The notes under the pieces are model-generated. The model was not told where the DNA came from. It worked only from the letters and a program-made list of their open reading frames with translations, and searched no databases. Positions 1 to 1,309 of a stretch of DNA of 1,309 nt are shown piece after piece (positions within the stretch are counted from its first letter, which is position 1; each line of letters opens with the position of its first letter). The position numbers and the translations under genes are program-made. Source of the stretch: Escherichia coli. GTDB lineage: Bacteria > Pseudomonadota > Gammaproteobacteria > Enterobacterales > Enterobacteriaceae. The stretch lies in NCBI RefSeq assembly GCF_003334355.1, contig NZ_QOWP01000089.1; one strand, written 5' to 3'.

Positions 1-25
1 TGAACCGCCCCGGGTTTCCTGGAGA
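1..25. repeat. Terminal inverted repeat, IRR relative to transposase orientation
   Basis: Seen in sequence: positions 2-13 (GAACCGCCCCGG) are the exact reverse complement of 1298-1309, and positions 17-25 (TCCTGGAGA) are the exact reverse complement of 1286-1294. Positions 14-16 (GTT) mismatch the partner (AAA). Overall about 21 of 24 paired positions match. Position 1 (T) has no partner inside the window. Confidence 0.85.
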
Positions 26-42
26 GTGTTTTATCTGTGAAC

Positions 43-933
43 TCAGGCTGCCAGATCATCGTTTCCGATGGAAGCATAATAAGCTTTTTCTGCTTCTGCC
101 GGAGGAGTATGGCCCAGCCTTCCCAGCAATCGTCGATTGTTATACCAGTCCACCCACGTTAGTGTGGCCAGTTCCACTTCTGCACGGTTTTTCCAGCTCT
201 TACGGTGTATTACCTCCGCTTTGTAAAGACCATTGATGCTCTCAGCCATCGCGTTGTCATACGAGTCGCCTGTACTCCCTGTTGATGCCAGTAATCCGGC
301 TTCTTTTAGTCGCTCCGTATAGGCCAGTGACACATACTGAGAGCCTTTATCGCTGTGATGGATGGTGCCAGACGGACGACGGGCCCACAACGCCTGCTCC
401 AGCGCATCCAGCACGAATGTCGTTTCCATAGACGATGAGACCCGCCACCCCACGATGTATCCGGCAAACACATCAATGATAAACGCCACATAGACGAAGC
501 CCTGCCATGTGCTGACGTAAGTAAAATCAGCCACCCACAGCTGGTCAGGTCGTTCTGCCACGAACTGACGGTTTACGCGGTCGCCTGCGGCAACGGCTTT
601 CCGGCTGATGGTCGTACGGACCTTTTTACCCCGGAGAACACCGGCAAGTCCCATAACCGCCATGAGACGTGCCACTGTACATCTGGCCACCCTGATTCCT
701 TCCCGTAACAACTGACGCCAGACTTTACGCACACCGTACACCTGATGATTTTCATCGTATACGCGCTGTATCTCTCTCTTCAGCCAGTCGTCGTGCTGCG
801 CACGGGCACTGCGTTTATCCGGATGATGTCGCTGTTGCTGACAGTGGTAATACGTTGACGGGGCAATATGCAGTTCGCTGCATACCGGTCCGACCCCGTA
901 CTGCTCACGCAGCTTATCCAGCAGTGGCATCAT
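43..933 (-). CDS. IS3-family transposase OrfB (DDE / integrase-like catalytic domain; C-terminal part of OrfAB)
   Basis: Seen in sequence: 296-aa ORF, ATG at 933..931 (a second ATG follows at 930..928), TGA stop at 45..43. It lies in the -1 frame relative to orfA. Catalytic triad by motif inspection: D136 in LWVADFTYV (nt 526-528), D195 in HHSDKGSQY (nt 349-351), E231 in [15 protein letters not shown] (nt 241-243). D195 to E231 leaves 35 intervening residues, i.e. the DD(35)E arrangement of retroviral-integrase-like transposases. No internal stops or obvious truncation. Confidence 0.9.
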
Positions 934-941
934 TTTTTCCA
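928..941 (-). other. Putative programmed -1 ribosomal frameshift window (A6 slippery run) overlapping the orfA stop and orfB start (ATGA overlap)
   Basis: Seen in sequence: minus-strand 5'-TGG AAA AAA TGA TG-3', with the A6 run at + coordinates 933..938. In the orfA frame this reads W-K-K-stop; in the -1 frame it reads E-K-M-M and continues into OrfB. Established knowledge: IS3-family elements make the OrfAB transposase by -1 frameshifting on A-rich heptamers (A AAA AAG and similar) near the end of orfA. Inference: this A6 run is the shift site. The exact heptamer here (G AAA AAA, followed by a UGA stop) is not the canonical A AAA AAG. Confidence 0.6.
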
Positions 942-1256
942 GAGGCGGTCGAACTCCGCCTTCGCAAAATAAGCGGAAGCCTGGCGAAGGATATCGTTAC
1001 TGCGGCGCAGTTCACGATTTTCACGTTCCAGCTCTTTCAGACGCTGACGTTCAGCGCTGGTGAGCCCACCATCACCGCCCCCGGTATCCCGCTCATGCTG
1101 GCGAACCCAGACACGCAGAGTCTCCGGCGTACAGCCAATCTTTGGGGCAATGGAACAAATTGCCGCCCACTGTGAGTCATATTCATCCTGACTTTCCAGA
1201 ACCATACGAATCGCCCGCTGACGGACTTCGGGGGAAAAACGAGTATTTTTAGTCAT
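930..1256 (-). CDS. IS3-family transposase OrfA (DNA-binding / regulatory subunit; N-terminal part of the OrfAB fusion transposase)
   Basis: Seen in sequence: 108-aa ORF with ATG at 1256..1254 and TGA stop at 932..930, preceded by a Shine-Dalgarno-like AAGAGG 8 nt upstream. Protein features: a likely helix-turn-helix region around residues 28-52 ([25 protein letters not shown], about nt 1101..1175), a Gly-rich linker (DTGGGDGGL), and a heptad series L76-L83-L90-F97 (about nt 966..1031) consistent with the leucine zipper known for IS3-family OrfA proteins such as IS911 OrfA. Family assignment rests on recalled similarity. Confidence 0.9.
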
Positions 1257-1264
1257 CCTGTTTA

Positions 1265-1270
1265 CCTCTT
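1265..1270 (-). promoter_or_regulatory. Shine-Dalgarno sequence for orfA
   Basis: Seen in sequence: minus-strand AAGAGG (+ strand CCTCTT at 1265..1270), with 8 nt between the GAGG and the orfA ATG at 1256. Confidence 0.6.
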
Positions 1271-1285
1271 TCTCAGGGAGTTTAG

Positions 1286-1309
1286 TCTCCAGGATTTCCG
1301 GGGCGGTTC
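1286..1309. repeat. Terminal inverted repeat, IRL (upstream of orfA)
   Basis: Seen in sequence: reverse-complement partner of positions 2-25 as described for the IRR. The window ends ...CGGGGCGGTTC; a terminal A to pair with T1 (giving the usual IS3-family TG...CA termini) would lie at position 1310, just outside the window. Confidence 0.85.

Follow-up and report, generated by a model that had tools for sequence, protein, structure and literature searches.

Gene content of the window

The window (the whole 1,309-bp stretch of DNA analyzed here) carries two overlapping genes on its minus strand, orfA and orfB, both of them intact reading frames, between a pair of terminal inverted repeats. The upstream gene, orfA (930..1256, minus strand), encodes a protein of 108 aa with a helix-turn-helix domain (Pfam HTH_Tnp_1, PF01527, E = 8e-12), and this exact OrfA sequence is on record in at least 1000 contigs. 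It is preceded on the same strand by a leader (1257..1285) that runs from the inverted repeat IRL to orfA and contains a Shine-Dalgarno-like AGAGG (1269..1265), a putative ribosome-binding site 8 nt before the ATG. OrfA is probably both a regulator and the N-terminal part of the transposase, to judge from other IS3-family elements.

The downstream gene, orfB (43..933, minus strand), lies in the -1 phase relative to orfA, which it overlaps at an ATGA, and encodes a protein of 296 aa with a DDE integrase core. OrfB matches the Pfam families rve (PF00665, E = 3.5e-26), HTH_21 and rve_3, and the motifs located by eye give D136, D195 and E231 (OrfB numbering) as a candidate DDE triad, in which 35 residues separate the second Asp from the Glu. 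A programmed -1 frameshift would join the two products into OrfAB (43..1256, minus strand), a transposase of 404 aa. OrfB alone scores 316 bits against the NCBIfam profile NF033516 ('IS3 family transposase' equivalog), and the -1 fusion scores 366 bits (cut-off 160) and covers the profile in full (positions 1-369 of 369). The rve match and the NF033516 score thus identify a DDE transposase with an rve catalytic domain, as expected of the IS3 family, and all copies retrieved from the E. coli collection are annotated with a 'programmed frameshift'. For this particular copy, the transposase function is a predicted one.

An open reading frame on the plus strand (855-1175, 106 aa), antisense to orfA, was considered as a further gene and is open in all nine sequences compared. 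It was rejected because 14 of 16 substitutions are nonsynonymous in this frame, as against 4 of 16 in orfA. Its presence is a by-product of the orfA reading frame.

Frameshift signals

Two candidate -1 slip sites were found on the minus strand, U_UUU_G and a run of six A residues. The first of these (965..969) reads UUU (Phe) in the orfA frame, falls inside the first 15 positions of the Rfam ALIL (apical loop-internal loop) model and lies 4 nt upstream of stem 1 of a predicted ALIL pseudoknot. The second (AAA AAA, 933..938) is located directly before the orfA stop codon TGA. The pseudoknot, which would stimulate -1 frameshifting, occupies 859..975 on the minus strand and matches Rfam RF01497 at 121.5 bits (gathering score 50, E = 9e-33) from the first to the last of the 117 model positions. 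Its stem-loop 1 (960..944, minus strand; apical loop 955..949) is positioned upstream of the A run, and its stem-loop 2 (898..859, minus strand) has an internal loop at 893..888. Pairing between the two loops is possible, with the apical GUUCGA able to form six of six pairs, including one G-U, with UCGGAC in the internal loop of stem-loop 2. The element therefore combines a score above the gathering threshold over the full model with the apical-internal loop pairing that is expected of an ALIL structure. Overlapping frames in phases 0 and -1, accompanied by signals for a predicted frameshift, are likewise a feature of the IS3 family.

The fusion proteins that slippage at U_UUU_G or at the A run would yield differ at residues 98-107 only. 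The U_UUU_G fusion is identical to the protein that NCBI names 'IS3-like element IS1203 family transposase', on record for 394 contigs; the exact sequence of the A-run fusion has also been deposited, as the rarer annotation (158 contigs). Two frameshift products of IS629 were reportedly described by Chen and Hu in 2006 (cited in PMC5771124). Frameshifting in IS3411 relies on a pseudoknot of the ALIL type (review, PMC5009743).

Ends of the element and target duplications

The window starts with TGAACCGCCCCGGG and ends with CCGGGGCGGTTC; positions 1-2 are TG and the last bases are ...GGTTC. A repeat finder paired positions 2-25 with 1286-1309 as the arms of an inverted repeat with 21 of 24 complementary bases (88%). 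When an A is added at the right end, the repeat becomes 25 bp long and matches at 22 of its positions; the three mismatches are confined to repeat positions 14-16. Past 25 bp the two ends are unrelated, and the inverted repeat is no longer than this. The best of 200,000 random draws had 16 of 24 matches and so fell short of the observed 21; with a binomial p of ~2e-10, chance is excluded as an explanation for the terminal inverted repeat.

The limits of the element were examined in 16 independent insertions with flanks, 8 of them at 99.9-100% identity to the window and 8 of them isoforms at 95-97.5%. Similarity to the window begins at exactly base 1 in all 16 copies, and the sequence immediately before it is unrelated. 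At the other end, the base next to position 1309 is A in every one of the 16, including the sole copy that is 100% identical, and the flanks diverge thereafter. This invariant A and the divergent flanks indicate that the true element is 1310 bp long, with ends 5'-TG...CA-3', and that the window lacks its last A. The imperfect terminal repeats ending in TG...CA that are expected of the IS3 family are therefore present, with the final A taken from the 16 related copies.

Because the transposase genes lie on the minus strand, base 1 belongs, by IS convention, to the IRR end and the cut end to IRL. IRR thus occupies 1..25 at the left edge of the window, begins 5'-TG and matches the other end at 22 of 25 positions, and IRL occupies 1286..1309 at the right edge, with 24 of its 25 bases inside the window and the terminal A of ...CA just outside; neither repeat is assigned to a strand.

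Direct repeats adjoin the 1310-bp unit, and not the 1309-bp unit, in 11 of the 16 copies. Ten of them are 3 bp long (ctt, gta, cag, gaa, gag, tta, ggt, cat, aat and cac) and one is 4 bp long (ggag). Target duplications of 3-4 bp, a further feature of the IS3 family, are thus seen in related copies, outside the reach of the window itself. In the remaining five full-length copies (L001, L004, L012, L013 and L017), a target duplication is absent, which suggests that copies later recombined with one another or that neighboring DNA was deleted. Such a proportion agrees with a published survey of IS629, where duplications of 3-4 bp were found at 21 of 47 sites (PMC3271280).

An earlier note on this DNA had placed terminal inverted repeats flush with both edges of the window, with TG at position 1, had put the right edge one base short of the CA terminus, and had expected target duplications of 3-4 bp and repeats that do not continue beyond the window. 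These expectations were borne out by the 22/25 repeat, by the common start at base 1, by the A that follows position 1309, by the mostly 3-bp duplications in related copies and by the unrelated sequence outside base 1 and outside that A in all 16 copies. What our analysis refines is the orientation, as base 1 of the window is the conventional right end (IRR).

Other readings of the two edges were weighed against an intact 1310-bp element. First, the copy could really be truncated, with the terminal A lost in the source genome and the end defective as a result. The window does stop at ...GGTTC, where the next base is not visible; however, the A is present in 16 of 16 copies, including the only one that is 100% identical, and a window that begins at exactly base 1 and ends at 1309, a single base before the end of the 1310-bp element, resembles the outcome of an off-by-one error in the coordinates. 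We regard a true truncation as highly improbable. Second, the window could belong to a larger mobile unit, for example a composite transposon or a longer element, as one of its arms or an inner portion, with the true ends outside. This is less probable still and already largely refuted. Nothing in the window speaks for it, although IS629-type copies often lie beside other IS fragments (the IS30 and IS91 remnants near L001 are an example). The flanks directly outside base 1 and after the A are mutually unrelated in 16 independent copies, the duplications adjoin the 1310-bp unit in 11 of them, and the inverted repeat stops at 25 bp.

Identity and abundance of the element

The whole window is almost certainly one intact copy of the IS3-family element IS629, in its IS1203 isoform, minus the final base; the putative isoform name follows NCBI naming and the literature. 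In a megablast search of 5,426 complete E. coli genomes, an E. coli plasmid (NZ_CP045828.1, positions 38609-39917) matched at 100% identity over the full length, and thousands of chromosomal and plasmid copies matched at 99.9%. The copies at 99.9-100% identity are annotated as 'IS3-like element IS1203 family transposase' together with an 'AL1L pseudoknot' feature. Since an annotated IS copy spans the window from end to end at 100%, nothing in the window lies outside the element; no passenger genes or cargo were seen within the 1309 bases, which hold no flanking DNA.

The sole difference between the window and the common O157-type copies is at position 844, where the window has G and those copies have A. 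The change is synonymous (OrfB His30, CAC instead of CAT), and among the best matches listed, the G is common only to the plasmid NZ_CP045828.1.

The element is thus already known, ordinary and very abundant. Matches occur in 4253 of the 5426 complete E. coli genomes (median 4 places in each, 53 at most) and in 3373 plasmids of PLSDB, mainly from Escherichia, Shigella and Salmonella. E. coli O157:H7 and F-like plasmids carry elements of the IS629/IS1203 type in abundance. It is well documented that these elements drive much of the genome diversification, gene inactivation and deletion seen in E. coli O157:H7 and on plasmids for virulence or resistance. The locus that any given copy interrupts can be read from its flanks only, and these are absent from the window. 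For the present stretch of DNA, the most useful course is to label or mask it as IS629/IS1203, as it is not a place to mine for novel systems.

The same searches speak to the remaining claims of the earlier note, which had read everything in the window as a single intact IS3-family element of the IS629/IS1203/IS3411 type, had seen no novel system, and had named a full-length IS3-family match by BLAST as its check. That match exists (100%, NZ_CP045828.1) and an annotated IS copy accounts for 100% of the window. Both reading frames are intact, with HTH_Tnp_1, HTH_21 and rve domains and a fusion that spans positions 1-369 of NF033516 at 366 bits. The type also stands, on 99.9-100% DNA identity to IS1203-family copies and an exact match of the fusion protein, with the three names belonging to isoforms of one element (PMC3271280).

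Relation to known elements

According to Rump et al. (PMC3271280), IS1203 and IS3411 are isoforms of IS629, and the 'sub-type I' copies of E. coli O157:H7 are closest to IS1203. The closest relative of the window is IS1203 of E. coli O111:H-, which in E. coli O157:H7 is IS1203v or 'IS629 sub-type I'. IS1203-family copies share 99.9-100% of their DNA sequence and the exact OrfAB protein with the window, and are alike in length, ends, duplications and pseudoknot; the window differs by the synonymous base at 844 and the absent terminal A. The IS629 prototype of Shigella sonnei and IS3411 of the citrate transposon Tn3411 have the same organization as the window. Among the copies fetched at 95-97.5% identity, the ends, both ORFs, U_UUU_G and stem 1 of the pseudoknot are common with the window. 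In the copies examined, these isoforms diverge by ~3-5% of nucleotides, mostly at third codon positions, with small differences at repeat positions (window 14, 22 and 1297), in the A run and at the start of orfB.

IS911, IS2 and IS3 are more distant: they resemble the window in having orfA and orfB in phases 0 and -1, an OrfAB transposase of the DDE type, TG...CA ends and duplications of 3-4 bp, but they are distinct elements whose sequences are not close to it. In contrast to these three, the IS629 type has an ALIL pseudoknot and two candidate slip sites, and no junction promoter was recognized by a consensus scan of the simulated circle of the window. The copy-out, paste-in route via a circle is assumed for IS629-type elements by analogy with IS911, IS2 and IS3.

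Conservation across isoforms

The 8 diverged copies (95-97.5% identity, 33-65 mismatches relative to the window) allow the coding and regulatory parts of the element to be compared. Both ORFs are intact in all eight. There are 119 variable sites, of which 111 could be assigned to a single ORF, and 76 of these 111 fall at third codon positions; of 116 distinct substitutions across the 8 isoforms, 38 are nonsynonymous. Judged from these sequences, both minus-strand ORFs are under purifying selection across the isoforms.

The slip site U_UUU_G and stem-loop 1 are invariant in 8 of 8 isoforms, and the A run is down to five A in one of them (L018). The pseudoknot region (859-975) contains 8 variable sites in the isoforms fetched and no compensatory pair, which is little variation for a covariation test; the pseudoknot call therefore relies on the Rfam score.

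Predicted transposition pathway

The pathway outlined here is drawn from the IS3 family (IS911, IS2 and IS3) and from published work on IS629/IS1203v. A fraction of the ribosomes translating orfA would slip back one base and so make OrfAB, the transposase, whose activity would be damped by OrfA alone and possibly also by OrfB. The transposase would bind the inverted repeats, cut one strand at the 3' CA end and join it near the other end to create a figure-of-eight, which replication could then resolve into a circular copy of the IS with abutted ends. Finally, integration of the circle at a new target (copy-out, paste-in) would leave a short duplication of 3 bp. For IS1203v/IS629, the -1 arrangement of orfA and orfB, the role of OrfAB as the transposase and circle intermediates have been described (bioRxiv 10.1101/2023.06.07.543989).

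A scan of the whole window for a sigma-70 consensus promoter gave 0 sites. A relaxed sigma-70 scan (threshold 8/12) of the leader and IRL (1257-1309) and of a simulated circle junction (IRR + NNN + IRL) gave none either.

Internal repeat-like sequence, rearrangement junction and truncated copies

A 16-mer inside orfA (ACCGCCCCCGGTATCC; 1074-1089, plus strand) resembles the terminal repeat, agreeing with its core (window 4-19) at 14 of 16 positions. By chance, 0.01 matches of this quality would be expected, and the resemblance is unlikely to be accidental. The 16-mer corresponds to the residues DTGGGD in OrfA, and wobble-position changes have eroded it in 3 of the 8 isoforms. Because it is not kept in those three, a function is doubtful, and we consider it very unlikely that the 16-mer is a binding site for OrfA or OrfAB. 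If it were, this putative site might be an operator for autoregulation, or a surrogate end from which truncated derivatives arise. We know of no internal repeat-like binding site described for IS629.

The only copy that is 100% identical to the window (L001, on NZ_CP045828.1) has no target duplication. Its flanks were taken as L001 positions 2689-3003 and 4310-4480. The left flank is a truncated gene, called 'hypothetical protein' elsewhere and 'transposase' here, whose TGA stop is supplied by the opening bases of the IS, and the right flank is the interior of traH. The two flanks were found adjacent to each other in no plasmid record. The hexamer ATGTAC is present on both sides of this copy (offset by one base) and was considered as a 6-bp duplication. 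It was rejected because ATGTAC is native to both of the unrelated flanks and no plasmid record has these flanks adjacent; the shared hexamer is a coincidence at a rearrangement junction. The L001 copy therefore sits at an IS-associated rearrangement junction that joins two unrelated sequences, hence the missing duplication. The surrounding context also holds the remnants of IS30 and IS91.

Truncated copies of the element occur in many E. coli records. Among the records sampled down the ranking of matches, five start at window position 516 (516-1309), and three cover positions 1-174 only. Such recurrent breakpoints suggest either that a few truncated derivatives arose long ago and spread or that some positions are hot spots of interruption.
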